A DNA stretch of 64,000 nucleotides, taken from contig CAZAEH010000001.1 of the NCBI GenBank assembly GCA_964484255.1, positions 68,674 through 132,673 of the forward strand. The letters are read 5' to 3'. A program made the position numbers and the translations under genes. A model generated the notes under the pieces. The model ran no database searches. It worked only from the letters and a program-made list of their open reading frames with translations, and was not told where the DNA came from. This DNA comes from an uncultured Planctomycetia bacterium (lineage in GTDB: Bacteria > Omnitrophota > Gorgyraeia > Pluralincolimonadales > Pluralincolimonadaceae). Positions within the stretch are counted from its first letter, which is position 1. Each line of letters opens with the position of its first letter. This document shows, one piece after another, positions 10,596-58,788 of this stretch.

Positions 10596-11150
10596 CTATG
10601 TCTTCGCTCCTAAATAGAAGACCATGTTGTCGGACGGCCGGACTAAGATGATCTCGACCGCTGAGGGGTATGTGCTATGGAAACAGGCGCTCCAAAGATA
10701 TATGAACATCTTATCAGATCGGATCTCGTCTTCCTTCGGGAACCACGAGATCTTCTCCCAACGCGAGTATCCTACAACAAAATCGACAGCCTTGCTTATA
10801 ATCTCGGGCAATTGATCTCCGCGATACCAGCTGACGCAAAATTCGTTTGGACCGGGCGTTAGCTCTGCGGGATCAACGTGGCTGATCTTGATGGCAAAGG
10901 CATCAAGATGATCGCCTGTGAATGATCGAGGAGATCGATAGCTGTAGATCACCTTCTCAATGCGGTCATCTCCCAGGTTGCACCAGTTCAACACAAAACG
11001 GACATCCTCGTTCTTTACGGAGTTGATCTCTTCCTTATTACCGAATTGCATCTGGTATATGATGAGTCCGGAGAGCAAGAGAACGCCGAGGAGAGAGATT
11101 ATTCCCCATGCGAGAAGAAGCCGTTTTACTACAGAGGTGATCTTTTTCAT
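10596..11150 (-). CDS. Membrane-anchored hypothetical protein
   Basis: N-terminal TM helix. No recognised domain. Confidence 0.5.
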   Translation of the reverse strand: MKKITSVVKRLLLAWGIISLLGVLLLSGLIIYQMQFGNKEEINSVKNEDVRFVLNWCNLGDDRIEKVIYSYRSPRSFTGDHLDAFAIKISHVDPAELTPGPNEFCVSWYRGDQLPEIISKAVDFVVGYSRWEKISWFPKEDEIRSDKMFIYLWSACFHSTYPSAVEIILVRPSDNMVFYLGAKT

Positions 11151-12721: not shown

Positions 12722-14050
12722 CTATTTCATGCCTTGCGAGATGATACCCACGGACTTTTCGTACTTGGCGCGGGAGGTGAGGTAATCCGATATCGCGGAA
12801 GCACGGTTCTGTTTTGCGGAAACAAGCTGGGTCTCGGCGTCGGTCACTTCAATTATGGAACCGAGGCCCTCTTCGTAGCGCGCGTTCGCGATCTCAAGGT
12901 TCTCGGAGGACTGCTGCAGCAGCTTACCCGTAACATCAAACCTCTCCTTCGCTTCCCCTAGGCCGAGCACCGCGTCCTGGACCTCGAGGGTTATCCTTAA
13001 GGACTCGTCTTCTATGGCGTATTGCGCCATCTTGAGGCTCGCCTGCGCGGCCTCGACCTGAGACTTCGTCCTGAAACCGTCAAACCACGGGAAATTCACC
13101 GAGATACCGGCATTCCAGCTCTTGACGTTGCCGACACCCTCGGTATCGGTATCGCTGACCTGCTGCGCGCCGGCCGCCGAGACGGTAGGCCAGTTGCCTT
13201 TCTTCTTGACCTCGAGGTCCGCCTGCGCCGCGCGCGCCTGCGCCTGCAGCTTGACGAGCTCTACACGGTTGTCCATGGCCGTCTTTAGCGCCTTGGCAAG
13301 ATTTATCTCCTGCGATTCCGGCATGCCGTATTCCTCCACCGCGAAATCAGAGCTGTCCTTGTTGCCCATTACGTTATTCAGCGACGCCTTGGTGAGCTTG
13401 TAATCTTTTTCCGCGGTAACAAGGCTGAGCTTAGCATTGGAGACCTCGACTTCTGCTTTGGTGACATCATATCTCTGCCTGTAACCGACCTCAAAAAACC
13501 CTTCGGCCCTTTCCAAGTGCACCTGAGACTGCTTAAGGTCCTCCCTCGCGACAGCAAGCATCAGCTGAGCCCTTAATACGGCATAATAGGCCTTCCTGGC
13601 CTCGAGTATCGTGTTCTCCTGCGCCTCAAGGAAAGCGCACTGCGCCGAGGTAAGGTTCTCTTTAGCGAGCTTTATGCTGTTGAGTGTCTTGCCGAAATCC
13701 CATATCAGCTGGCTTACCCCTGTGGATTCCTGCGCGATATTGTAACGCTTGGCAAACCCTCCCATAGAGACCATCGCCTCGCTGTCCGGCCCGAGCGTTA
13801 CCTTGGAGGTATCATAATGTGTATACCCTCCCGAGGTGGATACCTGAGGCATATATGCCGATTTTGCCGTCCCGACCATTGCCTTATAGAAATCCGAATT
13901 CCCCGCGGCTTCCTTAAGTTTCGGGTTGTTGGCAAGCGACGCCTTTACGCAGTCGTTAAGGGTCAAGACGGGTATTTCTTCCGGATAGCCCCAGGGCGCA
14001 GCCGCCAGCACAAGCGTCAATATGACTATTATCTTACGTATAAGTGACAT
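12722..14050 (-). CDS. TolC-family outer-membrane efflux protein
   Basis: Signal peptide and coiled-coil-rich OEP repeats. Last gene of the efflux operon. Confidence 0.8.
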   Translation of the reverse strand: MSLIRKIIVILTLVLAAAPWGYPEEIPVLTLNDCVKASLANNPKLKEAAGNSDFYKAMVGTAKSAYMPQVSTSGGYTHYDTSKVTLGPDSEAMVSMGGFAKRYNIAQESTGVSQLIWDFGKTLNSIKLAKENLTSAQCAFLEAQENTILEARKAYYAVLRAQLMLAVAREDLKQSQVHLERAEGFFEVGYRQRYDVTKAEVEVSNAKLSLVTAEKDYKLTKASLNNVMGNKDSSDFAVEEYGMPESQEINLAKALKTAMDNRVELVKLQAQARAAQADLEVKKKGNWPTVSAAGAQQVSDTDTEGVGNVKSWNAGISVNFPWFDGFRTKSQVEAAQASLKMAQYAIEDESLRITLEVQDAVLGLGEAKERFDVTGKLLQQSSENLEIANARYEEGLGSIIEVTDAETQLVSAKQNRASAISDYLTSRAKYEKSVGIISQGMK

Positions 14051-15162
14051 CACATAGTCCTCTTGAATGTCAGTGTTGCAAGGAAAAGCATGAGCGCCGT
14101 AAAACATGCCAGGAACAGCAGGTCGCCCCTGACCGCGGCGAAACCCGTGCCTTTCAATATCAAGGACTTAAGCGCGTGGACCGCGTAGGCCTCAGGGTTG
14201 ACCGCCGCAAAAGCCCTGAGCCAGCCCGGCAGGCTCTCTATAGGATAAACCGCGCCGCTCGGGAAATAGAATATTACGTTCAGGAAGCCTATGGTGACAC
14301 CGACAATACGCGGATGGTCCGCCCTTCCCAGGACCATGAATATCATGCTAAGAAGGCCAAGCGCCGTAAGCACTATGGTAAATACCAGCAGCGCAAATGA
14401 CATCAGGCCGCCGGCAAGTTTTATCCCCGTTATGAACATACCTCCCATCATGACAAGAAAAGACATTATGGTCGTAATAAAAACACCGCTTATTATAGTC
14501 CCGACGACTATATCCATCCTGGTAAGCGGCGTCGACAGGTAGCTCTCATGTATGCCGAGGAACTTGTCCATCACGATGCTGAAAGCCCCCGTGAAAGTGG
14601 TCCCCATAAATATCGCCATGACTATTATGCCGGGCACCAGTGACGCGTCATAATCGATCTTCTTGTAAAGTTCCACAGCCCTGAACTGCGTCTTCGCCAG
14701 CGTCAAGCGCACAGAGATATACTCCGACTTCAGGTAGTTCATGGCGCGTGAGACGGCGCTGGATACCCCCGCGGCGGAAATGCTGTCGGTATTATCGAGG
14801 AAAAGTCCTATCTGGGGATTCACGTCCTTGACGACATCCTCGCTGAAGCGCGGCGGAATAATCAAGGCCCCCTTGTAAAAACCATTCTTAACCGCCTCTA
14901 TCGCGGCCTTCTGGTCGGTCATCTTTGTTATGTCGAGCGTGCGCGGGCCGTCCCTTAACGCCTGCAGGAGCTCAGTGACGCGCCTGGCATAGGGGCCGTT
15001 ATCCTGGTCGATGATGACAACGGGTATGTGCTTGAGCTCGCCCTGGAAAGAGTTGCCCATTATAATAAGGTAGACCAAGGGCATGAGGATGCTCGCTATT
15101 ATCACTATCGGGTTACGCGAGAACCTCCTAAGGTCCCTCTCTGTTATGGCTAACGCTCTCAT
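14050..15162 (-). CDS. ABC-2 type transporter permease
   Basis: 6 TM helices after a large N-terminal periplasmic loop. Adjacent to an ATPase. Confidence 0.8.
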   Translation of the reverse strand: MRALAITERDLRRFSRNPIVIIASILMPLVYLIIMGNSFQGELKHIPVVIIDQDNGPYARRVTELLQALRDGPRTLDITKMTDQKAAIEAVKNGFYKGALIIPPRFSEDVVKDVNPQIGLFLDNTDSISAAGVSSAVSRAMNYLKSEYISVRLTLAKTQFRAVELYKKIDYDASLVPGIIVMAIFMGTTFTGAFSIVMDKFLGIHESYLSTPLTRMDIVVGTIISGVFITTIMSFLVMMGGMFITGIKLAGGLMSFALLVFTIVLTALGLLSMIFMVLGRADHPRIVGVTIGFLNVIFYFPSGAVYPIESLPGWLRAFAAVNPEAYAVHALKSLILKGTGFAAVRGDLLFLACFTALMLFLATLTFKRTM

Positions 15163-40107: not shown

Positions 40108-40836
40108 TTATTTCCCCTTTTCCAATTCATCGGTAAGTATTATAGCTTCCGCTATTTGCCGCATGGTCTTGCGGAGGCTCATGGCCTGCTTCTGTATCCT
40201 CCTAAAAGCATCTTCCTCGCTAAGACCCTTACGCATAAGTATCCCTTTTGCCCTCTCCACGATCTTCCTGGTCTCGAGCTCTTCCTGGATTATCTTTGAT
40301 TTTACCATCAGCTGGGCGTTCTCAATGGCCACCGCCGCCTGGTTCGCCACAGCGGTAAGAACATTGGTCTCGGTCTTGGTGAACTTGTGGGGCGCGGAAG
40401 TATAGACATTCAATACGCCTATGACCTTTCCCTTGACGGACATGGGCACAGACAGAAGGGAGCAGATCTTCTCTTTTCTTGCTATCTCCCTGTTGATGTA
40501 TCTTTCATCTTCGCGAACGTCGGAAGCGACTATAGGTTTTCCGTCCTTAGCCACCATCCCGGCGATACCTTCGCCTATTTTTATGTTGGGCTTCTTATTG
40601 TATGCCTCACTTACGCTCTGGGTAGCGCGGATTACCAGTTCGCCTTTCTGCTCATCAACGAGCATGAGCGAGCATATGTTGGAATCCATAAGCTCGGCAG
40701 TGACCATGACAATAAGCTTGAGTATGTCTTCAAGATAAAGGTTAGAGGTTATCGTCTGGCTTATCTTGGAGAGGGCTTCTATGTGCCTCTCATAAGCCGA
40801 CGGCTTCTGTGCCCTTGCCGCAGGTTTTCGCTTCAT
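40108..40836 (-). CDS. GAF plus ANTAR domain RNA-binding antitermination regulator
   Basis: C-terminal ANTAR motif IVERAKGILMRKGLSEEDAFRRIQKQAMSLRKTMRQIAEAI. Confidence 0.8.
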   Translation of the reverse strand: MKRKPAARAQKPSAYERHIEALSKISQTITSNLYLEDILKLIVMVTAELMDSNICSLMLVDEQKGELVIRATQSVSEAYNKKPNIKIGEGIAGMVAKDGKPIVASDVREDERYINREIARKEKICSLLSVPMSVKGKVIGVLNVYTSAPHKFTKTETNVLTAVANQAAVAIENAQLMVKSKIIQEELETRKIVERAKGILMRKGLSEEDAFRRIQKQAMSLRKTMRQIAEAIILTDELEKGK

Positions 40837-42173
40837 AGTATAGACAGGTACTCCTTTATTTCATAGTCCGTAACCCGGGCCCTGTATTTGTCCCACTCTA
40901 TCTTCTTGTTCTCGATAAACGTGGTAAAGGCATGGTCCCCGAGAGCTTTCTTTACGACAGAACTCTTCTCGGTCTCGAGGATAGCCTCATACAAATCACC
41001 CGGGAGCGGACGTATTCCCCTCTTGGCCCTCTCGTCCGGAGTGAGCTCAAAAACATTCTCTTCTGTAGGGGGGATCAATTCATAGTTCTTTTCGATACCT
41101 TCAAGCCCGGCGGCAAGCATCACGCTGAAGGCAAGATACGGATTGCAGGCCGGGTCCGGCGAACGGTACTCCACGCGCGTTGCCTTTTCTTTCCCAACCT
41201 TGTATTCAGGTATCCTGACAAGCGTGGAACGGTTCTTCTTCGCCCAAGCTATATAAACAGGTGCTTCATAACCCGGCACAAGCCTCTTGTATGAATTGAC
41301 CCATTGGCTTGTAACCGCAGTTATCTCGCGCGAATGTTTGAGAAGTCCCGCGATATAGGACTTGGCGATCTTAGAAAGATGGAATTTATCCTTGGCGTCA
41401 AAGAAGGCGTTCTTGTCTCCCTTGAACAACGACTGGTGGACATGCATACCGGAACCGTTCATGCCAAAAACGGGTTTCGGCATAAAGGTCGCATATACGC
41501 CAAAACGTTGGGCAACTTCCTTTACTACTACACGGTAAGTCATGGCGGCATCGGCCATAGTCAGGGCATCGGTATACCTGAGGTCTATCTCATGCTGGCT
41601 GGGAGATACCTCGTGATGGCTGTATTCCACGCCGATCCCCATCGCCTCAAGCATCAGAACGGTATCGCGCCTCAGGTCGGCGGCCGGATCGGGCGGGATC
41701 AGGTCGAAATACCCGCCGGCATCGAGCGGTTCCGTCCCGTTGTTGTCCTTGAAATAAAAGAATTCCAGCTCCGGGCCCACGTAGAAGGTAAACCCAAGCT
41801 TTGCGGCGCGTTTCAGGTTCTGCTTGAGGATATACCTCGGGTCTCCGGTGAACGGGGTCCCGTCAGGCCTGACAATATCGCAAAACATCCTGGCAACCGC
41901 AAACTCATCCTTCGGTCTCCACGGAAGCAGGACAAAGGTGCTCGGATCGGGCCTGGCCATCATGTCCGACTCATCTATGCGCGCGAAACCTTCTATCGAA
42001 GAACCGTCAAAACCCATACCCTCTTCAAGGGCCCCTTCAAGTTCCTCGACGGTTATGGCGAAGGATTTGACAAAACCCAGGATATCCGTGAACCAGAGCC
42101 TGATGAACTTCACGTTGGCCTCTTTGGCCATCTTCAACACATATTCCTTGTCCTTGACTATTCTTGCTGGCAT
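40833..42173 (-). CDS. glnA: Glutamine synthetase type I
   Basis: 446 aa. Conserved GS N- and C-domain motifs. Confidence 0.9.
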   Translation of the reverse strand: MPARIVKDKEYVLKMAKEANVKFIRLWFTDILGFVKSFAITVEELEGALEEGMGFDGSSIEGFARIDESDMMARPDPSTFVLLPWRPKDEFAVARMFCDIVRPDGTPFTGDPRYILKQNLKRAAKLGFTFYVGPELEFFYFKDNNGTEPLDAGGYFDLIPPDPAADLRRDTVLMLEAMGIGVEYSHHEVSPSQHEIDLRYTDALTMADAAMTYRVVVKEVAQRFGVYATFMPKPVFGMNGSGMHVHQSLFKGDKNAFFDAKDKFHLSKIAKSYIAGLLKHSREITAVTSQWVNSYKRLVPGYEAPVYIAWAKKNRSTLVRIPEYKVGKEKATRVEYRSPDPACNPYLAFSVMLAAGLEGIEKNYELIPPTEENVFELTPDERAKRGIRPLPGDLYEAILETEKSSVVKKALGDHAFTTFIENKKIEWDKYRARVTDYEIKEYLSIL

Positions 42174-42187
42174 TTTACGTCTCCTTT

Positions 42188-43906
42188 TTAATATCTGTTG
42201 GTTATCGGGATGCGGCGGTCCCTGCCGAAAGCCTTCGGGGTTATCTTGACACCCGGGGGGCTCTGGCGTCTCTTGTATTCGTTCTTGTCGACCATATTAA
42301 TGACCTTCTTTACCACTTTCGGGTCAAAACGCTGGGCGACTATCTCATTCGCGGACCTGTCCTCTTCCACATAAAGCTTGAGTATGGCATCGAGAAGGTG
42401 ATACGGCGGCAGGGAATCCTGGTCCTTTTGGTTTGGCCTGAGTTCGGCCGTAGGAGGCCTCTTGATGGTAGTAACCGGTATTATCTCTTTCCTTGCCACG
42501 GCATTCCTGTACTCCGCAAGCTGGTAGACGGTCATCTTCGGCACGTCTTTCAACACCGCAAACCCTCCGGCCATGTCCCCGTAAAGAGTGCAATATCCGG
42601 TGGACATTTCACTCTTGTTGCCGGTGGTAAGCACCAGCCAATCGAATTTATTTGATAAGGCCATCAGCATGTTGCCGCGTATCCTGGCCTGTAGGTTCTC
42701 CTCCGCTATATTAGGTTTCGCATCCTTGAATTCTTTTTTAAGGAGCCTCATATACGACTGGTATAATACATTTATTGGGATAGTTATGACTTTAAGTCCC
42801 AGGTGCTTGGCAACAGCTATTGCATCGGCGCGGGTCTCTTCCTTCGTATACATCGAGGGCATGGTAACTGCAGCTACATTGTCTTTCCCCATTGCATCGG
42901 CGGCTATGCACGCTACAAGAGCGGAATCTATGCCTCCGCTGACACCGAGAACAGCTTTCTTAAAACCGTTCTTCAGGACATAATCCCTTGTACCGGCCAC
43001 CAGGGCCTTGTAGATCTCTTCTACGCTGCCGAGTTTCTCGGTCCTGTGCGGAGGGAACGGAGGGCGGATCTTGACCTCACACCTCTTGAGGGACAGTTCC
43101 CTGGTCTTATACGCCAGGGCACCATTCTTCTTTTTCGGTGCTTTCCTGTATTTGAGATATTCTTCCGCGTTGAGGTCAAAAAGAACTATATCTTCCTCAA
43201 ATTGCTTACCCCTGGCAAGAACGGACCCTTTCCAGCCTATTATCATGCTTCCGCCGTCAAAAACCAGTTCATCCTGTCCGCCCACAAGGTTATTATAGAA
43301 TATTATGGAAGCGGTCTCGCGAGCTCGTTCGACCAGCATGTTCTCGCGTTCCTGCAGCTTGCCCGAATGATACGGGGAAGCTGATATATTTATGATCACC
43401 TGGGCGCCCATCTCCATGGCCGCGAAATTGGCCGGCCCTGCGCCTTCCCATATGTCTTCGCATATATTTACGCCTATCTTAAGCCCCTCCAGCTTGAAAG
43501 CGAATGTCTCGTTCCCGGCATTAAAATAGCGTTTTTCGTCAAAAACACCGTAATTCGGTAGGAGTATCTTATGGTATATATGGAGCAGTTCTTTATCGCG
43601 TATAAGAGCGGCCGAATTGTAGATGCCATCCTTGCCCTTATCAAGACAACCGACTATTACTATTATATTATCCGCTTTATGCGCTATATCATTGAGGGCC
43701 TTCATGGCGTCATCTACGAATTGGGGCTTCAAAAGCAGGTCTTCGGGAGGATACCCTGTCAATGCCAGTTCAGGTAGGATAACCACGTCGCAACCCAATG
43801 ATCTTGCGTCACTTATGGATTTAATGATCTTTTCCTTATTACCCTGAAGGTCGCCCACGGTAGGGTTTACCTGGGCCATGGCAAAGCGGATCGGGTCCAT
43901 TTTCAC
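42188..43906 (-). CDS. nadE: Glutamine-dependent NAD+ synthetase (N-terminal CN-hydrolase domain)
   Basis: 572 aa. Nitrilase domain plus the GVSGGIDS PP-loop. Confidence 0.9.
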   Translation of the reverse strand: MKMDPIRFAMAQVNPTVGDLQGNKEKIIKSISDARSLGCDVVILPELALTGYPPEDLLLKPQFVDDAMKALNDIAHKADNIIVIVGCLDKGKDGIYNSAALIRDKELLHIYHKILLPNYGVFDEKRYFNAGNETFAFKLEGLKIGVNICEDIWEGAGPANFAAMEMGAQVIINISASPYHSGKLQERENMLVERARETASIIFYNNLVGGQDELVFDGGSMIIGWKGSVLARGKQFEEDIVLFDLNAEEYLKYRKAPKKKNGALAYKTRELSLKRCEVKIRPPFPPHRTEKLGSVEEIYKALVAGTRDYVLKNGFKKAVLGVSGGIDSALVACIAADAMGKDNVAAVTMPSMYTKEETRADAIAVAKHLGLKVITIPINVLYQSYMRLLKKEFKDAKPNIAEENLQARIRGNMLMALSNKFDWLVLTTGNKSEMSTGYCTLYGDMAGGFAVLKDVPKMTVYQLAEYRNAVARKEIIPVTTIKRPPTAELRPNQKDQDSLPPYHLLDAILKLYVEEDRSANEIVAQRFDPKVVKKVINMVDKNEYKRRQSPPGVKITPKAFGRDRRIPITNRY

Positions 43907-43975: not shown

Positions 43976-44016
43976 GGTACCAAAAACGTATAAAATCACC
44001 AAAAAGGGACATTCTC

Positions 44017-44766
44017 ATGAAAAAAATCATTATTTTGTCTGTTGTATCGATACTCTTCAGCGCAAATCTTTGGGCGGATACTTTAATTTTCAAATCGGGT
44101 AAGACCGTAGACGGGGATATCAAGTCTATTACCGGCAATACCGTCACTATGGATATATACGGGGTCACCGAAATGACCTACGACCTTTCCGAGATTGAAT
44201 CGATCAATGGAAAACCGATAATGGCAGAAGATGTTGAAAGTGCTCCTGCGCAGTTGAAAGAGCCGCAGTCCAAAATCGCTATAGACCACGAGCAAAAGTT
44301 CTCCCAGGAATCGCAAACGGTAACCGCTGCGGATACTGCAGCATTCTTAGCGATCTTTCTTGGCATAATTCTGGCGATCTTGCTGTTCTTCCATGTCTTC
44401 TTTGCTTTATGCCTTCAATTAATAGCCATAAAGACCTGCACACAGCCGTCTTGGTTGGCGTGGATACCGGTAGCAAACCTGTTCCTTATGTGTAAAATAG
44501 GCGGTTTAAGCTATTTTTGGCTGCTCGCTTTATTTGTGCCGTTCCTGAACCTGGTCGTCACTATCTACATGTGGTGCAGGATATCCGAGGCAAGGGGTAA
44601 ACCGGGGATTTTGTCGCTGCTGTTACTTGTGCCTATAGCAAACCTTATATTTGTCGTATATTTGGCCTTCTCCGGGAGTAAAAAAGGGACGGTCCCGTCA
44701 CCTGTTAAAGGTGAGGAGCCAGCAAGCCCTTATCAGAACCGCCCCTATAACCCGCCTCTCGAATAA
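44017..44766 (+). CDS. Hypothetical membrane protein with signal peptide (the only convincing plus-strand gene)
   Basis: Long ORF in a gap between minus-strand genes. Hydrophobic C-terminal half. Confidence 0.5.
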   Translation: MKKIIILSVVSILFSANLWADTLIFKSGKTVDGDIKSITGNTVTMDIYGVTEMTYDLSEIESINGKPIMAEDVESAPAQLKEPQSKIAIDHEQKFSQESQTVTAADTAAFLAIFLGIILAILLFFHVFFALCLQLIAIKTCTQPSWLAWIPVANLFLMCKIGGLSYFWLLALFVPFLNLVVTIYMWCRISEARGKPGILSLLLLVPIANLIFVVYLAFSGSKKGTVPSPVKGEEPASPYQNRPYNPPLE

Positions 44767-44769
44767 CTA

Positions 44770-46272
44770 TCAGATATCGAAGTAAAGGTAGAACTCGTAG
44801 GGATGCGGACGCATCCTGACGGCATCTATCTCCTTCTTCCTCTTGTATTCGATCCAGATGTCTATTACGTCCTTGGTAAATACGCCGCCCTTGAGCAGGT
44901 AATCGTGGTCCGCCTCAAGCGCATCGATGGAGCGGCGCAGCGATGACGGGACGGTCGGTATCTTAGACATCTCTTCCTCTCCCAGCTCAAAGAGGTCCTT
45001 ATCGGTAGGCTTGCCCGGATCGATCTTGTTCTGGATACCGTCCAAACCGGCCATGAGCATGGCAGCAAACGCTATATAACCGTTGCATGACGGGTCCGGC
45101 GGCCTGAACTCGATCCTCTTGGATTTCGGGCTGTCGCTGTACATAGGTATACGTACTGCGGCGGAACGGTTACGGGCCGAATAGACAAGGTTAACAGGCG
45201 CTTCGTAGCCCGGGACAAGCCTCTTATAAGAGTTCGTGGTCGGGGCGCAGAATGCCATAAGGCTATTCGCGTGCTTGAGCAGCCCGCCGATGTAATACTT
45301 GGCGGTCTGGCTCAGGAGCGCGTAGCCGTTCTTGTCATAAAACAGGTTAACGCCGTTCTTCCACAAACTCTGGTGGCAATGCATACCGGAACCGTTATCT
45401 GCAAAGAGCGGCTTCGGCATGAAAGTAGCTACCATCCCGGCTTTCCTGGCCATATTCTTGATTATGTACTTGTACATAAGCAGGCTGTCGGCCATCTTAG
45501 TGAGTTTATCGAACTTTATGTCGATTTCGCACTGTCCGGCGGTAGCAACCTCATGATGATGGACCTCAATGTTGACACCGGCTTCCTTCATCTTGAGTAT
45601 CATCCTGCTCCTCAGGTCCTGCAAGGTGTCATGCGGCGGAACGGGGAAGTATCCTTCCTTGTAACGGATCTTGTATCCGAGGTTCGGCTCTTCTTTGCGT
45701 CCGGTATTCCAGTCACCTTCGTTGGAATCCACGAAATAATAGCCTGAATTCTCGTTCTGGTCGAAACGCACGTCATTAAAAAGGAAGAACTCGGCTTCCG
45801 GCCCAAAATAGATACTGTCGGCTATTCCGGTATCCTTGAGGTACTTCTCTGCTTTCCTCGCTATGTAACGCGGATCGCGCGAATACGGCTTGCGTGTAAG
45901 CGGGTCATAGATGTCGCATAGTATGCTGACCGTCGGCACCTCACAAACAGGATCGATCACTGCGCTCGTCGGGTCCGGGATAAGGATCATGTCGGATTCC
46001 TGTATCTTCTGGAAACCGCGTATCGAGGAACCGTCGAAACCTATACCATCGACCCATATGGAGTGGGTGATATCGTCCATCTCCTTGATCTCTGAAGCGG
46101 GTATGGTAAAATGCTGCCAAAGACCGGGAAGGTCGTTGAACTTCAGGTCGACCATCTTGATGTCTTTTTCCTTGATCAACTTTATCACGTCGCGGGCGGC
46201 TTTCTCATTGAACGAGCCGTTCGCCAACGGATTGGCTGTCTTGACTTCCTTCACTTCCTTCTTCTTTGCCAT
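44770..46272 (-). CDS. Glutamine synthetase, second copy (500 aa form)
   Basis: GS catalytic motifs. Paralog of 40833-42173. Confidence 0.85.
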
Positions 46273-46318
46273 GCTGGCTTCCTCCTTTTATTTTGTGCAA
46301 AAAGTATACAACCCTATT

Positions 46319-46348
46319 GTTAAATCCATATTACAGGAATGTTAAATC
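46319..46348 (-). promoter_or_regulatory. Direct repeat GATTTAAC(A) x2 with 22-bp spacing upstream of the GS gene
   Basis: Minus sense: GATTTAACA-N13-GGATTTAACA, 47-76 nt upstream of the ATG. Confidence 0.5.
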
Positions 46349-46361
46349 TCCGGGGATGGTT

Positions 46362-46709
46362 TTACCCTATTGCCGGACAGCCTTTCTCGCCCGTCCTTAT
46401 CCTGATGCACTCGGGCATCTCCAGGACAAAGATCTTCCCGTCGCCTACATGTCCCGTGCGGGCGCCTTCCAGTATTGCGTCTACGGCAGGTTTAACGAAA
46501 TCGTCGTTGACGGCGATCTCAAGCTTCACCTTCTTGAGAAGGCTGCCTGCCTCTTTATGGCTCCTGTAAACCTCTGAAATGCCTTTCTGGCGGCCTCGGC
46601 CCATGACCGGAGTGACGGTCACAAGATGTATCTCCTTCTCCTCGAGCCTGGTAAGCACTTCATCGAGCCGGTCAGGCTGCACAATGGCAATTAAATATTT
46701 CATTATCAT
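46362..46709 (-). CDS. glnK: P-II nitrogen regulatory protein
   Basis: Conserved P-II fold sequence. Confidence 0.9.
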   Translation of the reverse strand: MIMKYLIAIVQPDRLDEVLTRLEEKEIHLVTVTPVMGRGRQKGISEVYRSHKEAGSLLKKVKLEIAVNDDFVKPAVDAILEGARTGHVGDGKIFVLEMPECIRIRTGEKGCPAIG

Positions 46710-46715
46710 CCCTCC

Positions 46716-48074
46716 TTAATCTAATACCGTGTAACCGGCTTCGCGATGCTGGGTCAAGTCAAGCCCTATCTTCTCATCCTGTTCGCTGGCGCGCACACCC
46801 ATGACCGCATCCAATACCTTTAGCAGGACAAATGTCACCACGAACGAATAAACAGCCGTAATCATAACCGCTTTGAATTGTATAAAGAACTGGGCGGGAT
46901 TACCGTAGAAAAGGCCGTCTGCCCCGGCGGGATTGACCGCCTTCGTGGCCCAAAGCCCAGTCGCAAGCGCTCCCCATATTCCCCCCACTCCATGGACGCC
47001 AAAGGCATCAAGTGAATCGTCGTAGCCGAATTTCACTTTCAGGACCGCGACAGATATATAACAAAACACCGAGACACCTATACCTATCCAAATAGCGCCT
47101 ACCGGATTCACAAAACCAGACGCAGGGGTTATAGCTACCAAGCCGCCAACCGCTCCGGTTATAATGCCCAAAACGGTAGACCGGGAATTGAATATCCAGT
47201 CAAGCATGGCCCACGTAAGCCCGGCTGCAGCGGCGGCGATATGCGTGACCACAAAAGCATTAGTTGCCAAAGCACCCGAACCCAGAGCGCTGCCTCCGTT
47301 GAAACCGAACCACCCGAACCAGAGCAATCCCGCGCCAAGAACGGCAAAAGGAAGATTGTGCGGCGGCGATATCTTGTGGGGATAGCCCTGCCTCTTGCCC
47401 AGCACCAGCGCGCTGGCAAGCGCCGCTATACCGGCGTTAATATGCACAACGGTGCCTCCGGCAAAATCGAGCGCTCCGTCAGCCCTGAGGAACCCTCCCG
47501 CGCCCCATACCCAATGGCAAACCGGGTCATAGACTATAGTAGCCCACAATACTGAAAATATGCAGAAGGTCGAGAATTTCATCCTTTCGGCAAAAGCTCC
47601 CAGGATAAGGGCCGGGGTTATGATAGCGAACATGGCTTGGAATATCATGAACGCCTGATGAGGGACCGTCGCGGCATAAACCGGGTTAGGCTCAAGGCCG
47701 ACATTCTTCAGGCCGAACCACCCTAATCCCCCTATTATCCCTTTGATGTCCGGACCAAATGAAAGGGAATACCCGAACAGCACCCATTGTATGGTTATTA
47801 TGCACATGAGCATGAAACACTGCATCAGTATGGACAGGATGTTCTTCCTTCGGACAAGCCCTCCATAGAAAAAAGCCAGTGCAGGCGTCATGACCAGGAC
47901 AAGGGCTGCCGAAGTCAGCAACCATGCGGTATCCCCTGTATCAACCTGGGCTAATTCCGCGGGCGCAGTCGCGGAAGGCGCGGTCTCCTCTGCCGCAACG
48001 ACCGTTGCTATCACAGTAAAAAGCAGGAATGCAGCAAAGAACCAGAACGGCGGACTTTTCAAGACTTTCGCCAT
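46716..48074 (-). CDS. amt: Ammonium transporter
   Basis: Amt family conserved TM motifs. Confidence 0.9.
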   Translation of the reverse strand: MAKVLKSPPFWFFAAFLLFTVIATVVAAEETAPSATAPAELAQVDTGDTAWLLTSAALVLVMTPALAFFYGGLVRRKNILSILMQCFMLMCIITIQWVLFGYSLSFGPDIKGIIGGLGWFGLKNVGLEPNPVYAATVPHQAFMIFQAMFAIITPALILGAFAERMKFSTFCIFSVLWATIVYDPVCHWVWGAGGFLRADGALDFAGGTVVHINAGIAALASALVLGKRQGYPHKISPPHNLPFAVLGAGLLWFGWFGFNGGSALGSGALATNAFVVTHIAAAAAGLTWAMLDWIFNSRSTVLGIITGAVGGLVAITPASGFVNPVGAIWIGIGVSVFCYISVAVLKVKFGYDDSLDAFGVHGVGGIWGALATGLWATKAVNPAGADGLFYGNPAQFFIQFKAVMITAVYSFVVTFVLLKVLDAVMGVRASEQDEKIGLDLTQHREAGYTVLD

Positions 48075-48124
48075 TTACCTCTCCTTTCCTTTTGCCTCAA
48101 TTGTGTATCCAACTAACATAAATC

Positions 48125-48149
48125 GGGCATAAAAAATCATTTTATGCCC
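48125..48149 (-). terminator. Hairpin GGGCATAAAA-N5-TTTTATGCCC at the end of the glnK-HTH transcript
   Basis: 10-bp perfect stem overlapping the HTH gene stop codon. Only a weak U-tract follows, so it could instead be a regulator site in the amt promoter. Confidence 0.4.
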
Positions 48150-48316
48150 AGCCTCTCCTTTACAACGCCCGCATACACCTTGTTTATGCGGTTGGTCTTG
48201 AACCAGCGTTCCAGGGTCGACGGCTGAATGTCGACCCTTTTCGCCAGATCATAGAGAGTATAGCCTTTGTCTTCCTTCAGCCTGCGTATCTTCTCTATCA
48301 GTTCCTTGTCGAACAT
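48138..48316 (-). CDS. Small helix-turn-helix DNA-binding protein (59 aa)
   Basis: Missed by the 60-aa ORF cutoff. MFDKELIEKIRRLKEDKGYTLYDLAKRVDIQPSTLERWF looks like an XRE-type HTH. Starts 4 nt after the glnK stop. Confidence 0.5.
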
Positions 48317-48319
48317 GGC

Positions 48320-48664
48320 CTAAATCGCGCCCTCGCCTTTCTCTCCGGTGCGTATCCTGATAGTATCTTCGACGGGATATATGAATATCTTCCCGTCCCC
48401 TATCTCTCCGGTCCTGGCTATGCCCGATATGGCCTTTACTAACTTCTCGACATCGCCATCCTTGACGACGATCTCGATCTTGATCTTCGGAAGGAAATTC
48501 ACCTTGTATTCCCTTCCCCTGAACTGCTCCGAGAGCCCCTTCTGGCGGCCATGCCCCTCGATGTGTGTTATCATCATTCCGGGATAGCCGAACTTATCCA
48601 GGGCCTCGGTGATCTCCTCAAGCTTCTCGACTCGAACAACCGCTTCTATTTTTTTCATTTTCAC
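48320..48664 (-). CDS. glnK: P-II nitrogen regulatory protein, second copy
   Basis: Conserved P-II sequence. Confidence 0.9.
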   Translation of the reverse strand: MKMKKIEAVVRVEKLEEITEALDKFGYPGMMITHIEGHGRQKGLSEQFRGREYKVNFLPKIKIEIVVKDGDVEKLVKAISGIARTGEIGDGKIFIYPVEDTIRIRTGEKGEGAI

Positions 48665-48672
48665 GGCCCTCT

Positions 48673-50040
48673 TTAATTACTGTACGTATAGAAATTAGGA
48701 TAAGCGGGAGTCCCGTGCTCGGGGATATCCAGGCCCTTGAGCTCTTCGTTCGGGGAAACCCTTATACCGAACATCTTATCCATTAACTTAAAGCCTGCAA
48801 AACCGAGTATGAACGCCCATGAAACGCATACGGCAGCGCCTATGAGCTGGGCGACCAACTGCCCGGAACCGCCTCCGTAAAACAGCCCTTTAACAAAGGG
48901 TTCGGAAGTTGAGCCCAAGCCGTAAGTACCGTCGGCAAAAAGCCCGACGCTTATAAGGCCCCAAACGCCGTTTATGCCATGGACGCTTACCGCGCCGACA
49001 GGATCATCAACGCCGCGGTTTTCCCAGAAGTAGACACCGATGACCACCAGTGCACCGGCTATAGCGCCTATAACGACGGCCGCCCATGCCTCTACCCATG
49101 CGCATGGCGCAGTAATGGCCACGAGGCCGGCCAGGCAACCGTTAAGCATCATGCCGACATCCCACTTCTTCGTCTTCATGAAAACAAGCAACAAGGCGAC
49201 AGCTGCGCCTGCGGCAGCGGCAAGGTTCGTGTTGACCGCGATCACCGCTATCCTCAACTGATGGGCTGAGAACGTGGACCCGGGGTTGAACCCGAACCAT
49301 CCGAACCAAAGGATAAAGGTACCGAGCGCCGCAAGAGTCATACTGTGGCCCGGTATAGCCTTCGGCTTCCTGTTCTTATCGAACTTCCCGAAACGCGGCC
49401 CCAGGACTATTGCGCCGGCAAGACCTACGAAACCGCCTATAGTGTGGACGACTCCGGAACCGGCAAAATCAACGTGGCCGACGCCGAAAGGCAGTTTAGA
49501 AAGCCAGCCGCCGCCCCAGACCCAGTGTCCGTACAACGGATATATAAGGGCGGTTACCAGGATACTGTAAAGGAAATAGGCCTTGAACTTTAGCCTTTCA
49601 GCTACAGCACCCGAGACTATGGTCGCTGCCGTTCCGGCAAATACCAGCTGCCAGAAGAACATAAGGTAACGGCCTACATCATAGTTATCGCCGTGGAGAA
49701 ACCATCCGGAAGTACCTATTATGCCGTTGTAATCATTACCCATCATGAACGCAAACCCGAAAGCCATGAAGATAAGCGAAGCCAAGGTAAAGTCTATCGT
49801 GTTCTTCGCCATGAGGTTCGTCGCGTTCTTGGCCCTGCAAAACCCGGCTTCCACCATCGCGAACCCTGCCTGCATGAAGAAGACAAGGAATCCGCATACA
49901 AGAACCCACACGTAATCGACCGGTGAATTCGGGTTTTGCGCAAGGGTCTCGGCGCCGCTCGGATCCTGGGCGAACGCCATACCTGAAACCCCTATTGCTA
50001 TCGCGAATATCGCGAGCGTTAACACTAGTTTTTTAAACAT
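48673..50040 (-). CDS. amt: Ammonium transporter, second copy
   Basis: Amt family. Signal peptide. Confidence 0.9.
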   Translation of the reverse strand: MFKKLVLTLAIFAIAIGVSGMAFAQDPSGAETLAQNPNSPVDYVWVLVCGFLVFFMQAGFAMVEAGFCRAKNATNLMAKNTIDFTLASLIFMAFGFAFMMGNDYNGIIGTSGWFLHGDNYDVGRYLMFFWQLVFAGTAATIVSGAVAERLKFKAYFLYSILVTALIYPLYGHWVWGGGWLSKLPFGVGHVDFAGSGVVHTIGGFVGLAGAIVLGPRFGKFDKNRKPKAIPGHSMTLAALGTFILWFGWFGFNPGSTFSAHQLRIAVIAVNTNLAAAAGAAVALLLVFMKTKKWDVGMMLNGCLAGLVAITAPCAWVEAWAAVVIGAIAGALVVIGVYFWENRGVDDPVGAVSVHGINGVWGLISVGLFADGTYGLGSTSEPFVKGLFYGGGSGQLVAQLIGAAVCVSWAFILGFAGFKLMDKMFGIRVSPNEELKGLDIPEHGTPAYPNFYTYSN

Positions 50041-50049
50041 GGGTCACCT

Positions 50050-50829
50050 CTACTTATTATTCTTGAACAATTTGCTGAACACGTCGAAGTCTATGTCAAA
50101 CTGAACCGTAACCGTATCGGCGAGGTTCCTGTTGTTATAACGGTCGAAACCGACGAGCATCGAGACGTTGTCGGAGAACTTCCACGAACCGCCGAAGTTC
50201 CAGCAGCCGTAAGAGCTGTCCGTACCCTGGTATTCAACGCATATCCAGAGTTTGTCCGATATCTCGCTCATCGTCCTCTCCCACGCGCCGAAGAAACCGT
50301 CGTTGTCCTTATTGCCGTCCTGGTCAAGAAGGAGCTTATCGTTGCCGTAAAAATAACCGGCCGAGACCCTTCCCAGGTCAAAATCTCCGGCTTTGAACGT
50401 CTTGGCTGCTTTACCGTAGACTATGTTGTAGTTCGTTGCGTTCTTCTTTGTACCGATGTCATAAGCACCCACGGCCAAGGCGGGGAAATACTCGCCGAAA
50501 GCGCCTTCCGGGATGCCGCCCTTCGCGTTGAAATACATCGGATAATCATCCAGGTCCCCCAACCCGGTCTTGTGATCAAAACCAGCCTCGATGTTGAATT
50601 TCTCGAACGGCAGGACACCGACCGTAAGACCTTCGTTTGTGACCGTGGACGGCCTGTCACCGGCTGAATCTCTTCCGGTAGGAAGGTACATGTCACCTGT
50701 TATGTGCATTACACCGTAAGCCTGGACATCGGTAGACGGGGCCCAGATATGCGTAGTGGCTGTTGCAAAAACCAGGGAAGGAACCCACAATAACGAAACT
50801 AGAACTAATGAACTCGCCAGCTTTCTCAT
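50050..50829 (-). CDS. Secreted putative outer-membrane porin-like protein, first gene of the amt-glnK operon
   Basis: Signal peptide MRKLASSLVLVSLLWVPSLVFA. Beta-rich, Gly/Tyr/Phe-rich sequence. AAAAGGAGG RBS. Confidence 0.5.
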   Translation of the reverse strand: MRKLASSLVLVSLLWVPSLVFATATTHIWAPSTDVQAYGVMHITGDMYLPTGRDSAGDRPSTVTNEGLTVGVLPFEKFNIEAGFDHKTGLGDLDDYPMYFNAKGGIPEGAFGEYFPALAVGAYDIGTKKNATNYNIVYGKAAKTFKAGDFDLGRVSAGYFYGNDKLLLDQDGNKDNDGFFGAWERTMSEISDKLWICVEYQGTDSSYGCWNFGGSWKFSDNVSMLVGFDRYNNRNLADTVTVQFDIDFDVFSKLFKNNK

Positions 50830-51076
50830 TTTACTGCCTCCTTTTAACGTAAAATCAACTTCGGGTTTTATAGATCGCCTTGATCTTCGATGACCTATCG
50901 ACTCCGATGTCGTCAAACGTTTCCGAACCGGCCCTGCATATCGGGCAGTTCTTAGGGGGCGCCGTACGTTGTGTGATGTATCCACACTTAGCGCACCGGT
51001 ACTTACTTGCTGGCTCTTTCCCTTTCACAAGCGACTCCCGTTTCTATTGTTTACACAAAAGAGTATACGGATGGAT

Positions 51077-51106
51077 GTTAAATCTGTGTTACGCGTAGGT
51101 TAAATC
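51077..51106 (-). promoter_or_regulatory. Direct repeat GATTTAAC x2 with 22-bp spacing in the long leader/promoter region of the porin-amt-glnK operon
   Basis: Same motif and spacing as at 46319-46348. Lies 33 nt downstream of the response-regulator stop. Confidence 0.5.
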
Positions 51107-51138
51107 TCGATTAATTTCAGGAGGGATATCGGAAGGGA

Positions 51139-51822
51139 TTATGCGATGAATTTGTATCCGATATTGCGGACTGTCTCTATAAAGGTATGCCTGCGGTCTT
51201 CTATCTTGCTGCGCAAACGGCGGATATGAACATCTACCGTCCTGGTCCCGCCGTAATAGTCATAGCCCCAGATCTTGTCCAGGAGCTGGTCGCGGGAATA
51301 TACGCGGCCCTTGTTGGAGGCAAGGAACTTGAGGAGTTCATATTCCTTGAAGGTCAATTCAAGCTTGCTTCCGCTCAGGGTCACCTCATACTTGGATACA
51401 TCTATTATGAGGTCCCCGGCCTTTATCATGTCTTCCGAATCGGTAGGTATGGCCTTCTTGAGAAGCACCCTTACCCTGATAACCAGCTCGGAGGGATTAA
51501 AAGGCTCGAATATAAAATCCCCTATAGCAGGTATATTATCGAGGACCTGCATTCCGTCAGCGGGCAGGACAGCAAATAGGAGTGTCTCCTTAAGGAACCT
51601 GTCTTTCTTGAAGGCGCGATAAGCTGATTGGGCGTCAAATACTTTCGGTGAGGTGAAATCCAGGATGATCATATCCGGACGGCGGCTGAGGGCTTCCTCG
51701 TATGCTGCCTTTACGTCAACGGTCTCATCCGAGAAATGCACCCGATAATCCGATTCCTTAAGCGCTTTCCTCGCGCGTTTAAGGCCTTCATCTTCCGAGC
51801 CTAAGAGCAGGATACCGCTCAT
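51139..51822 (-). CDS. OmpR/PhoB-family response regulator (orphan, no adjacent histidine kinase)
   Basis: REC domain plus C-terminal winged-helix (trans_reg_C) domain. Confidence 0.85.
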   Translation of the reverse strand: MSGILLLGSEDEGLKRARKALKESDYRVHFSDETVDVKAAYEEALSRRPDMIILDFTSPKVFDAQSAYRAFKKDRFLKETLLFAVLPADGMQVLDNIPAIGDFIFEPFNPSELVIRVRVLLKKAIPTDSEDMIKAGDLIIDVSKYEVTLSGSKLELTFKEYELLKFLASNKGRVYSRDQLLDKIWGYDYYGGTRTVDVHIRRLRSKIEDRRHTFIETVRNIGYKFIA

Positions 51823-51823
51823 T

Positions 51824-52630
51824 TTATTTTATGGCCGTTACGGTGATGCCCTTTCCATCGGCAATCCGCACGGTCTCCTCCTTGTCTATGATCAGGGTCT
51901 TCTTTGCTTCTATGGCGATACAACCGGCCTTCGCTTCCGCCATCGAGGCTATAGTCTGCGGACCTATCACGGGCAGGTCAAATTTCATACTCTGTTTCGG
52001 ACGCGCAACTTTCACGACCGTACCCCCCGGGCCTGCAAGCCTTCCGCCGCGCTTTATCATGGCATCGGTGCCTTCGATATCCTCGACTGCTATGACAGCC
52101 TTGTCCTTGATAAACACCGAAAGGCCTATATCCATCCCGGCGATCTCTTTGGCTATTGAAACACCGAACCTTATATCATCCTCCTGGGCCGGGGAAGGTT
52201 TCATGGAAGTCAACAAGCCCGCTGACGGAAGCAGATCCTCAAGGAAAAGGGTTGAATCGAGCAACTCGATACCGGAAGACCTCAGCGTAGATGTTATCAT
52301 GGATAGGAGGGTATCGTCCTTCCTGTCGAGGGCCTTTACCAAGATAGATTTCATCAGTCCGTCTATTTTAAGGGCCTCGTTGAATATCCTGGATTTAGTT
52401 ATGCCCCCGGCCATAACAGCTTTCTTTACGCCCTCCGCCTTGAAAAAATCGAGAACTTTCGAAAGTTCTCCCAGGCTTACCCAGCGGAACCTATCGGCAA
52501 GGGTTTCAACTTCAGGTTTCGTCTCGCCCTCTATGCCTACCGCCACAATGCTATAACCTTTGGCCCTTGCGGCGCGGGCGAAAATAAGGGGAAAATCACT
52601 TTTACCTGCGATCAAACCTATTGTGTCCAT
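51824..52630 (-). CDS. lpxI: UDP-2,3-diacylglucosamine hydrolase LpxI (DUF1009)
   Basis: Conserved LpxI family sequence. Located in the lpx cluster. Confidence 0.8.
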   Translation of the reverse strand: MDTIGLIAGKSDFPLIFARAARAKGYSIVAVGIEGETKPEVETLADRFRWVSLGELSKVLDFFKAEGVKKAVMAGGITKSRIFNEALKIDGLMKSILVKALDRKDDTLLSMITSTLRSSGIELLDSTLFLEDLLPSAGLLTSMKPSPAQEDDIRFGVSIAKEIAGMDIGLSVFIKDKAVIAVEDIEGTDAMIKRGGRLAGPGGTVVKVARPKQSMKFDLPVIGPQTIASMAEAKAGCIAIEAKKTLIIDKEETVRIADGKGITVTAIK

Positions 52631-58723: not shown

Positions 58724-58788
58724 AAAATCCTCATTTAAAGAATTAATTTAACATACGCATAACATAAAGTAAAGCAAATTGTAACGAC

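Follow-up and report, generated by a model that had tools for sequence, protein, structure and literature searches.

The closest described system to the one considered here is that of actinobacterial GlnR, an orphan OmpR-family regulator with a non-canonical receiver domain. Its boxes are known from the amtB, glnA, and nas promoters. GlnR boxes are built from a and b pentamers (gTnAc and GaAAc) with the consensus GTAAC and a spacing of 6 nt (PMC10235972), and the box of M. smegmatis has been given as t/gTAAC-n6-Gc/aAAC (PMC10704036 Table 2). Four GlnR protomers are arranged head-to-tail around the −35 position, with the b2 site downstream of −35, and this activating mode has been solved on the amtB promoter (PMC10235972). 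In the amtB promoter, the a2 site occupies the −35 position and is atypical and dispensable, and b1 and b2 are conserved (PMC5826061). We analysed a 64,000-nt stretch of DNA from a member of Candidatus Omnitrophota (contig CAZAEH010000001.1 of assembly GCA_964484255.1, positions 68,674 to 132,673; hereafter the window), in which the octamer GATTTAAC forms two direct-repeat pairs. One pair lies upstream of the glutamine synthetase gene glnA, and the other lies between the gene of an OmpR-family regulator and an ammonium-uptake operon. The octamer pairs are likely to be the strong half-sites of a GlnR-type operator, to which the neighbouring regulator would bind and thereby activate nitrogen genes.

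Pentamer arrays at the glnA and ammonium-uptake promoters

Exact matches to GATTTAAC occur four times in the window, all on the minus strand (46319-46326, 46341-46348, 51077-51084, and 51099-51106). They form two pairs with a 22-bp period, giving two mismatch-free GATTTAAC-N14-GATTTAAC units of 30 bp each. As a single copy, the octamer is not enriched in the window (4 observed versus 2.75 expected); as exact pairs, 2 were observed where 2.9e-5 are expected from the window base composition, and therefore the pairing is not due to chance. Both pairs are oriented like their downstream minus-strand genes. Site 1 lies inside the 89-bp gap between glnK2 (46362) and glnA (ATG at 46272), and site 2 lies 32 nt past the stop codon of the regulator gene. 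An earlier note on this DNA had reported repeated octamer pairs upstream of two nitrogen operons, and these are real, exact, and conserved. However, the repeat unit is not the octamer pair, as that note had it, but a pentamer, nTAAY, which recurs every 11 bp (nTAAY-n6). A conserved GTAAY is placed midway between the two octamers, and the octamers are the strong positions 1 and 3 of three.

The array of the glnA promoter consists of three pentamers, TTAAC-n6-GTAAT-n6-TTAAC, and that of the operon promoter consists of four, TTAAT-n6-TTAAC-n6-GTAAC-n6-TTAAC. On the coding strand, the region upstream of glnA reads ...gagatTTAACattcctGTAATatggatTTAACaatagggttgTATACT... and that upstream of the operon, whose first gene is rbx, reads ...TTAATcgagatTTAACctacgcGTAACacagatTTAACatccatccgTATACT.... 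A relaxed pattern, nTAAY-n6-nTAAY-n6-nTAAY, is expected only ~0.06 times per 64 kb. Named after their GlnR equivalents, the elements of site 2 (all on the minus strand) are a weakly conserved distal pentamer TTAAT in the 11-bp phase of the other three (a1, 51110-51114), the distal GATTTAAC (b1, 51099-51106, with its TTAAC at 51103-51099), a central GTAAC at the −35 position (a2, 51088-51092), and the proximal GATTTAAC between −35 and −10 (b2, 51077-51084, pentamer 51081-51077). The a1 position is occupied by TTAAT, TTAAC, GCAAT, or GAAAT in orthologues. Site 1, also on the minus strand, has the distal GATTTAAC (b1, 46341-46348, pentamer 46345-46341), a central GTAAT at the −35 position (a2, 46330-46334), and the proximal GATTTAAC (b2, 46319-46326, pentamer 46323-46319). 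It has no a1 pentamer upstream; TCCCC is found at that position.

The arrays end 10 nt (glnA) and 9 nt (operon) before a TATACT hexamer, which was read from the sequence as the putative −10 element of glnA (46303-46308, minus strand) and of the rbx-porin-amt-glnK-HTH operon (51062-51067, minus strand; HTH, helix-turn-helix). In orthologues, the former is kept as TATACT or TACACT and the latter as TAtAcT or TATAAT. When TATACT is set as −12 to −7, the pentamers fall at approximately −27/−23, −38/−34, and −49/−45, and in the operon also at −60/−56. A sigma-70 scan paired no −35 hexamer with either TATACT. Within the glnA gap, the scan made a single call, the weak 9/12 match TTAACA-18-AACAAT (46345-46316), which consists of the two TTAAC pentamers themselves. 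In the two promoter regions (46273-46361 and 51029-51138), we found no sigma-54 pattern (GG-n10-GC, −24/−12), no NtcA palindrome (GTA-n8-TAC), no inverted repeat of the Bacillus GlnR/TnrA type (TGTNA-n7-TNACA), and no TGTCA of a Pho box. An Rfam scan of 44000-52500 with E values up to 1 returned zero RNA families; therefore, the conserved regions represent no known leader or riboswitch.

The arrangement agrees with that of actinobacterial GlnR targets in several respects. The half-site is (t/g)TAAC, the half-sites are separated by 6 nt (the 11-bp phase), and three or four of them are present in each promoter. Of these, the proximal one is situated in the −35/−10 spacer and a less typical one at −35, in a promoter that has a −10 but lacks a −35 element. 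The targets are amt-glnK and glnA, and the 22-bp period is what separates b1 from b2 in two 22-bp GlnR boxes. The earlier note had found no match to the consensus sites of NtcA, GlnR/TnrA, or NrpR. A mismatch to known nitrogen regulators stands for NtcA, for the MerR-type GlnR/TnrA of Bacillus, and for sigma-54 promoters but not for the actinobacterial OmpR-type GlnR box (gTnAc-n6-GaAAc), which fits in half-site sequence, in 11-bp phasing, and in position relative to −35 and −10 (PMC10704036, PMC10235972). On the other hand, TTAAC, extended to GATTTAAC, forms the strong sites here, and b-sites of the GaAAC type are missing. The a2 site is well conserved in these promoters, whereas a1 is weak or lacking. 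With its three sites, the glnA promoter has no a1, although actinobacteria need a1, b1, and b2.

Conservation was examined in a footprint set of 19 distinct orthologous promoters from Candidatus Omnitrophota genomes, the regulators of which are 72-96% identical to that of the window. The proximal TTAAC and the central GTAA(C/T) are invariant in 19/19 promoters, and the distal TTAAC is kept in 18/19, being TTAAT in locus L085 (loci are designated by L numbers). A GAT precedes the proximal pentamer in every promoter, while the triplet before the distal pentamer varies (TAT, AAT) in glnA-type promoters. The −10 element is conserved as TAtAcT, TATAAT, or TACACT, whereas the n6 spacers vary freely across the set. 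In the near-identical strain L110, the substitutions inside both sites fall in the spacers alone.

A weight matrix built from the orthologous sites gave 52.2 and 48.3 bits for the two window sites, and the next best match scored 7.1 bits. The maximum in 20 randomised windows was 10.3 bits, and no further site in the window rose above this background; the 7.1-bit match (58742-58775) is antisense and within the null range, with a bamA-like gene on one side and a dnaB-like gene on the other. The scores in 179 kb of Omnitrophota loci fell into two classes, one of 37-40 bits, without exception upstream of rbx, amt, or glnA, and one of at most 11 bits. Such bimodal scores, strong at nitrogen promoters and otherwise at background, are characteristic of a protein-binding site that is under constraint and serves few targets. 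The relaxed pattern behaves in the same manner in the fetched Omnitrophota loci, where it occurs solely upstream of rbx, the second amt (L082), and glnA, and always in the sense orientation. In a scan of a metagenome collection with the exact pattern, 10 of the 27 matches were located at the rbx-operon and glnA promoter types, and the other 17 were on unrelated contigs, none of them upstream of a recognisable gene.

The motif is thus not placed at random and is present in the orthologous promoters of relatives, so that neither of the two outcomes named as refuting in the earlier note was observed. The suggestion that it could define the nitrogen regulon is borne out in part. In ~240 kb of Omnitrophota sequence, the strong motif was found only at the promoters of rbx-porin-amt-glnK, the second amt-glnK, and glnA. 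The earlier assignment as a direct-repeat site of the OmpR/PhoB type is supported, and the sites lie on the glnA and ammonium-uptake promoters.

The neighbouring regulator and its relatives

The 227-residue protein encoded at 51139-51822 (minus strand) is an orphan OmpR-family regulator and is the proposed binder of the motif. It matches Pfam Trans_reg_C with 101 bits; its receiver domain is degenerate, with a Response_reg score of only 12.9 bits. In a full-length search of the PDB, the top three entries were GlnR structures (8HML, 8HIH, and 8HIG). Entry 8HML is the S. erythraea GlnR DNA-binding domain (DBD) on DNA and 8HIH is the M. tuberculosis GlnR transcription activation complex (PMC10235972); 8HIG, according to its entry title in the fold search, is a second S. 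erythraea GlnR DBD-DNA co-crystal. With the DBD alone, phmmer against the PDB gave 122, 121, and 113 bits for GlnR (8hml, 8hig, and 8hih, respectively), and the runners-up were VicR and RegX3 with 88 bits and PhoB with 70 bits. The DBD is 55% identical to that of S. erythraea GlnR, and the identity to the same protein is ~44% over the C-terminal 147 residues. The residues R186, V190, R193, and R194 (S. erythraea numbering), which read the bases of GTAAC in the GlnR co-crystal (PMC10235972), are all conserved and lie within GGTRTVDVHIRRLR. Most residues of the DBD-DBD interface are also kept, as read from the alignment against PMC10235972. The regulator can be aligned with bona fide GlnRs from end to end, and on these comparisons the neighbouring gene is best described as encoding a distant, GlnR-like orphan regulator.

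The receiver domain keeps the Asp but has lost the canonical Thr and Lys, as in GlnR. Because these two conserved residues are missing, control by classical phosphotransfer is probably not used, at least to judge from the residues present. No histidine kinase gene is adjacent to the regulator gene in the window or in any orthologous locus, and no other OmpR-family gene is present in the 64-kb window. An AlphaFold model shows a generic two-domain OmpR/PhoB fold (predicted local distance difference test score, 83), and the Foldseek ranking against the PDB is non-discriminating within the family.

Two other groups of OmpR-family regulators resemble the present case. The Pho box of PhoB consists of CTGTCAT repeats, and PhoR is the partner of PhoB. 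As here, the 11-bp direct repeats of PhoB, which activates in a class II-like manner, abut the −10 element and replace the −35 element, the recognition helix is near-identical (RTVDVHIRRLR), and PhoB is the best NCBIfam match of the window regulator. However, the equivalog TIGR02154 reached 135 bits against a cutoff of 296, the promoters here are those of nitrogen genes and contain no TGTCA half-site, and a PhoR partner is lacking. WalR/YycF and B. subtilis PhoP recognise sites of the TGTWAH-n5-TGTWAH type, and WalR has a cognate kinase (WalK) and controls cell-wall genes. Their DBDs are the second closest to that of the window regulator (88 bits, ~46% identity) and share the RRLR-KIED motif. 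However, the WalR/YycF equivalog NF040534 scored 115 bits against a cutoff of 340, no kinase is adjacent here, and the strong sites are TTTAAC rather than TGTAAC.

The close homologues of the regulator (58-96% identity) all come from metagenome-assembled genomes of Candidatus Omnitrophota. In the window and in L081, L082, L083, L085, L089, L110, and L111, the regulator gene is flanked by lpxI and the rbx operon. Eight Omnitrophota loci with an upstream flank share the synteny lpxD-lpxC/fabZ-lpxA-lpxI-regulator, and in most of them rbx-porin-amt-glnK comes next, followed by glnA in L081 and L082. In this respect the system differs from actinobacterial GlnR, because the regulator gene adjoins its targets and abuts the lpx cluster. 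The host also differs, being a member of Candidatus Omnitrophota with lipopolysaccharide genes and not of Actinomycetota.

More distant homologues were collected by a genome-contig scan with the regulator alignment, which was driven by the peptide patterns GG[TD]RTVDVH and RRLR[SA]KIED. Among the matches listed were homologues from Dehalococcoidia, Armatimonadota, and Latescibacterota with 40-58% identity, together with bona fide actinobacterial GlnRs, which have 58-74% identity to the fragment of S. erythraea GlnR. In at least five Dehalococcoidia loci, the gene of a homologue (40-49% identical) directly precedes amt(-amt)-glnK, with glnA next on those contigs that extend far enough. Four of the five loci also carry the strict pentamer array. 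Their amt promoters read (G/T)TAAC-n6-(G/T)TAAC-n6-GTAAT-n6-(GAAAC, GTAAC or TAAAC)-n10-(−10 hexamer). A search for the strict array in 1.43 Mb of loci yielded 5 arrays, all of them, by coordinates, immediately upstream of amt or glnA. Since the Dehalococcoidia homologues and arrays are both situated at amt and glnA, the regulator-operator pair appears to be common to several phyla.

Several observations weigh against the likeness to GlnR. The Pfam GlnR_1st profile gave 14.8 bits for the window regulator, compared with a gathering score of 27; the orthologue P0003 reaches this score with 27.5 bits. A PDB search with the receiver domain alone gave weak, generic receivers and no GlnR receiver. 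The receiver of actinobacterial GlnR is atypical and not phosphorylated and has a network of Asp-50, Arg-52, and Thr-9; here, the Asp and an acidic N-terminal pocket are retained, but Arg-52 and Thr-9 have no equivalents. His-164 of M. tuberculosis GlnR, which contacts the beta-flap, is replaced by Asn. The closeness of the DBD is moderate, with 55% identity to GlnR versus ~46% to VicR/YycF, and the residues of the recognition helix are common to PhoB and others, so that they agree with a GlnR-like specificity but are no proof of it. WalR-type sites, for their part, have a half-site similar to the central (T)GTAAY pentamer. The genome-contig scan was biased to GlnR-like proteins and missed close Omnitrophota genomes, and it served for gene context alone, not for assigning the family. 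Finally, the regulator orthologues of L086 and L087 do not adjoin nitrogen-assimilation genes.

Proposed binding mode and competing explanations

On the basis of adjacency and of a DBD nearest to that of GlnR, the orphan regulator, one of the two candidates of the earlier note, is the best candidate for the binder, and we regard it as quite probable that it binds the sites. In the proposed mechanism, the regulator (51822-51139) would bind head-to-tail with one DBD per pentamer, so that the first protomer would fill the stretch between −35 and −10, the second would cover the −35 position, and the remaining one or two would be placed further upstream. The bound protomers would together recruit RNA polymerase when nitrogen is limiting. 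As a result, ammonium uptake (rbx-porin-amt-glnK) and glutamine synthetase would be switched on. Activation under nitrogen limitation, which is argued from the analogy with GlnR, is put forward with less assurance than binding, although we still consider it the reasonable expectation.

One alternative is that the arrays are genuine OmpR/PhoB-type operators whose binder is another response regulator encoded elsewhere, for example a kinase-coupled one of the WalR/PhoP type, and that the adjacent orphan regulator has some other role. Half-sites are alike among several OmpR-family regulators, the DBD is just moderately nearer to GlnR than to VicR/YycF, the regulator of L086 and L087 is not beside nitrogen-assimilation genes, and only 64 kb of the genome are visible. 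However, the adjacency of regulator, site, and operon is kept across Omnitrophota and independently, with the same architecture, in Dehalococcoidia. Moreover, GlnR, the closest characterised homologue, binds such half-sites in such a layout, and the window has no second OmpR-family gene. We consider a different binder unlikely.

It is similarly unlikely that the regulator binds the array as a repressor, which would occlude the −35 region and the spacer and keep the genes off under nitrogen excess. The proximal sites do overlap the core promoter, and actinobacterial GlnR also represses some genes, for example ald (PMC4140684). However, neither promoter has a match to a −35 element, which is typical of activator-dependent promoters, and an identical geometry, in which a2 coincides with −35 and b2 falls into the −35/−10 spacer, is that of activation in the GlnR-RNA polymerase structure (PMC10235972). 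Furthermore, amt, glnK, and glnA are GlnR-activated genes in actinobacteria.

The earlier note had also named the 59-residue HTH protein encoded in the operon as a possible binder. This protein is of a DNA-binding type (HTH_26/HTH_3), and its gene lies between the two sites. However, the gene is absent from L082, L083, L085, and L089, all of which keep the motif, and on this phyletic pattern the protein was rejected as the binder. In addition, HTH dimers of the Cro/C1 type normally bind inverted repeats, and 11-bp-phased direct repeats are unlike their usual targets. Binding of the motif by this protein is accordingly very improbable. The least credible explanation, that the pairs have no regulatory function and are a remnant of promoter duplication or chance, could invoke the TATACT hexamer and the T-rich stretch after it that both regions share, but it is opposed by a chance expectation of 3e-5, by pentamers that are fixed while the spacers differ between sites and species, and by the recurrence of the same architecture in another phylum.

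To our knowledge, nitrogen regulation is uncharacterised in Candidatus Omnitrophota and in most Dehalococcoidia, and we know of no use of NtrBC/sigma-54, NtcA, TnrA/GlnR, or AmtR in Omnitrophota and Dehalococcoidia. A literature search on GlnR in Chloroflexi, Dehalococcoides, or Omnitrophota returned nothing relevant, which is no proof that such a system is unreported. We lean slightly towards the view that GlnR-type control is old and widespread, present in Omnitrophota, Dehalococcoidia, and probably Armatimonadota and Latescibacterota, and that the Omnitrophota version evolved the extended GATTTAAC half-site and a three-site minimal promoter. The components of such an old system would be an orphan regulator of the OmpR family whose receiver has decayed and a head-to-tail operator for three or four protomers that extends into the −35/−10 spacer.

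If a GlnR-type operator bound by the neighbouring regulator is indeed present, searches of metagenome-assembled genomes for the regulator-operator pair could be used to predict nitrogen regulons. The pair would provide a sequence-defined entry to nitrogen regulation in phyla that lack cultured representatives or genetics. The activation geometry of GlnR, with a protomer between −35 and −10 and a weak −35 site, would be conserved far outside Actinomycetota, and the divergent receivers would form a natural set for asking how orphan GlnR-type regulators sense nitrogen. This would extend a known mechanism to uncultivated Gram-negative-type and Chloroflexota lineages, and would not be a new kind of system.

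Gene content of the locus and further observations

All genes of the region are on the minus strand, in the order lpxI, regulator, site 2, rbx, porin-like gene, amt, glnK, and HTH gene, continuing with amt2, glnK2, site 1, and glnA. The first gene of the operon, rbx (50855-51028), starts with GTG and encodes a 57-residue rubredoxin-like zinc-ribbon protein with a CxxC...CxxC arrangement. Its orthologues are called RUBY_RBDX, the tblastn identities are 62-100%, and its NCBIfam matches are weak ones to rubrerythrin domains. It is the conserved first gene of the motif-bearing porin-amt-glnK operon in all Omnitrophota loci. The next open reading frame (ORF; 50050-50829) encodes 259 residues with a signal-peptide-like N-terminus and directly precedes amt1. 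It has no Pfam or NCBIfam family match, and its orthologues are 79-87% identical; this porin-like protein may be an outer-membrane ammonium channel. The 311-residue porin previously taken as the first gene is a run-on reading of these two, because orthologous loci call a RUBY_RBDX gene followed by a protein of 225-266 residues (258-266 in four of five).

The operon continues with the ammonium transporter gene amt1 (48673-50040; Pfam Ammonium_transp, E 1e-133), the PII protein gene glnK1 (48320-48664; Pfam P-II), and the gene of the 59-residue Cro/C1-like HTH protein (48137-48316; HTH_26/HTH_3), which is not conserved with the motif. A terminator-like hairpin with an 11-bp stem (48150-48124) follows the HTH gene. 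The second ammonium transporter gene, amt2 (46716-48074; Pfam Ammonium_transp), and the second PII gene, glnK2 (46362-46709; Pfam P-II), precede glnA (44770-46272), which encodes a type I glutamine synthetase of 500 residues (Pfam Gln-synt_N and Gln-synt_C; NCBIfam TIGR00653 with 682 bits, over its cutoff). No motif is present in the 62 bp that precede amt2 (48075-48136), whereas the equivalent position of L082 (12594) is occupied by a full site.

Downstream of glnA, the minus strand of 40833-43906 encodes a second glutamine-synthetase-like protein (446 residues) and a 572-residue ORF, which are separated from glnA by a divergently oriented DUF5684 gene. The 572-residue ORF has the same position as the gene of a glutamine-dependent NAD synthetase in L081 (CN_hydrolase and NAD_synthase in that locus). 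No motif was found upstream of the 446-residue glutamine-synthetase-like gene or the 572-residue ORF. On the other side of the region, lpxI forms the end of an lpxD-lpxC/fabZ(fusion)-lpxA-lpxI cluster that precedes the regulator gene. The regulator gene abuts or overlaps the lpxI stop codon in the window (51820-52630, minus strand) and in L081-L089, and because it always does so, co-transcription of the nitrogen regulator with the lipid A genes is suggested.

The orthologous loci show further variation around the regulator. In L083, L085, and L089 (~13640-15150), where glnA is not present at this position, glnK is followed by a gene that encodes a small HTH_8 protein of the Fis type. This gene precedes gltB-gltD in L083 and L089, and L085 ends within the next, unannotated gene. 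Because no motif was found upstream, GOGAT may be under different control. The regulator orthologue of L086 (962-11394) and L087 is 64% identical to that of the window and still matches Pfam Response_reg. Its neighbours are lpxI and an Rrf2 gene, the latter followed by a molybdopterin oxidoreductase/Nar- or Nxr-like cluster with cytochromes and without an amt operon, and no motif was found at these two loci. The most divergent Omnitrophota locus, L088, the contig of which ends after the regulator, has a regulator with 59% identity and the sequence ATAAC-n5-ATAAC-n7-TTAAC-n9-TATAAT at 10700-10760. Its outer pentamers are still 22 bp apart, but the middle pentamer is displaced by 1 bp, and an additional T is present in the octamer (GATTTTAAC).

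Two groups of sequences stood out among the unrelated metagenome contigs. In L098, L099, L100, and L109, a near-identical AT-rich sequence, ATTTAATGTGAA(A/G)GTAAT(A/G)AAGATTTAAC, has conserved flanks; it is a repeat element or a conserved intergenic region of an unrelated organism that matches the pattern by chance. L092 (~510-600), L112 (~6727-6800), and L113 (~455-540) contain at least three tandem 22-bp units of GATTTAAC-n6-GTAAC-n3, with a CopG-like small ORF downstream of the units in L112. These units resemble iterons or the GlnR-like arrays of other organisms.

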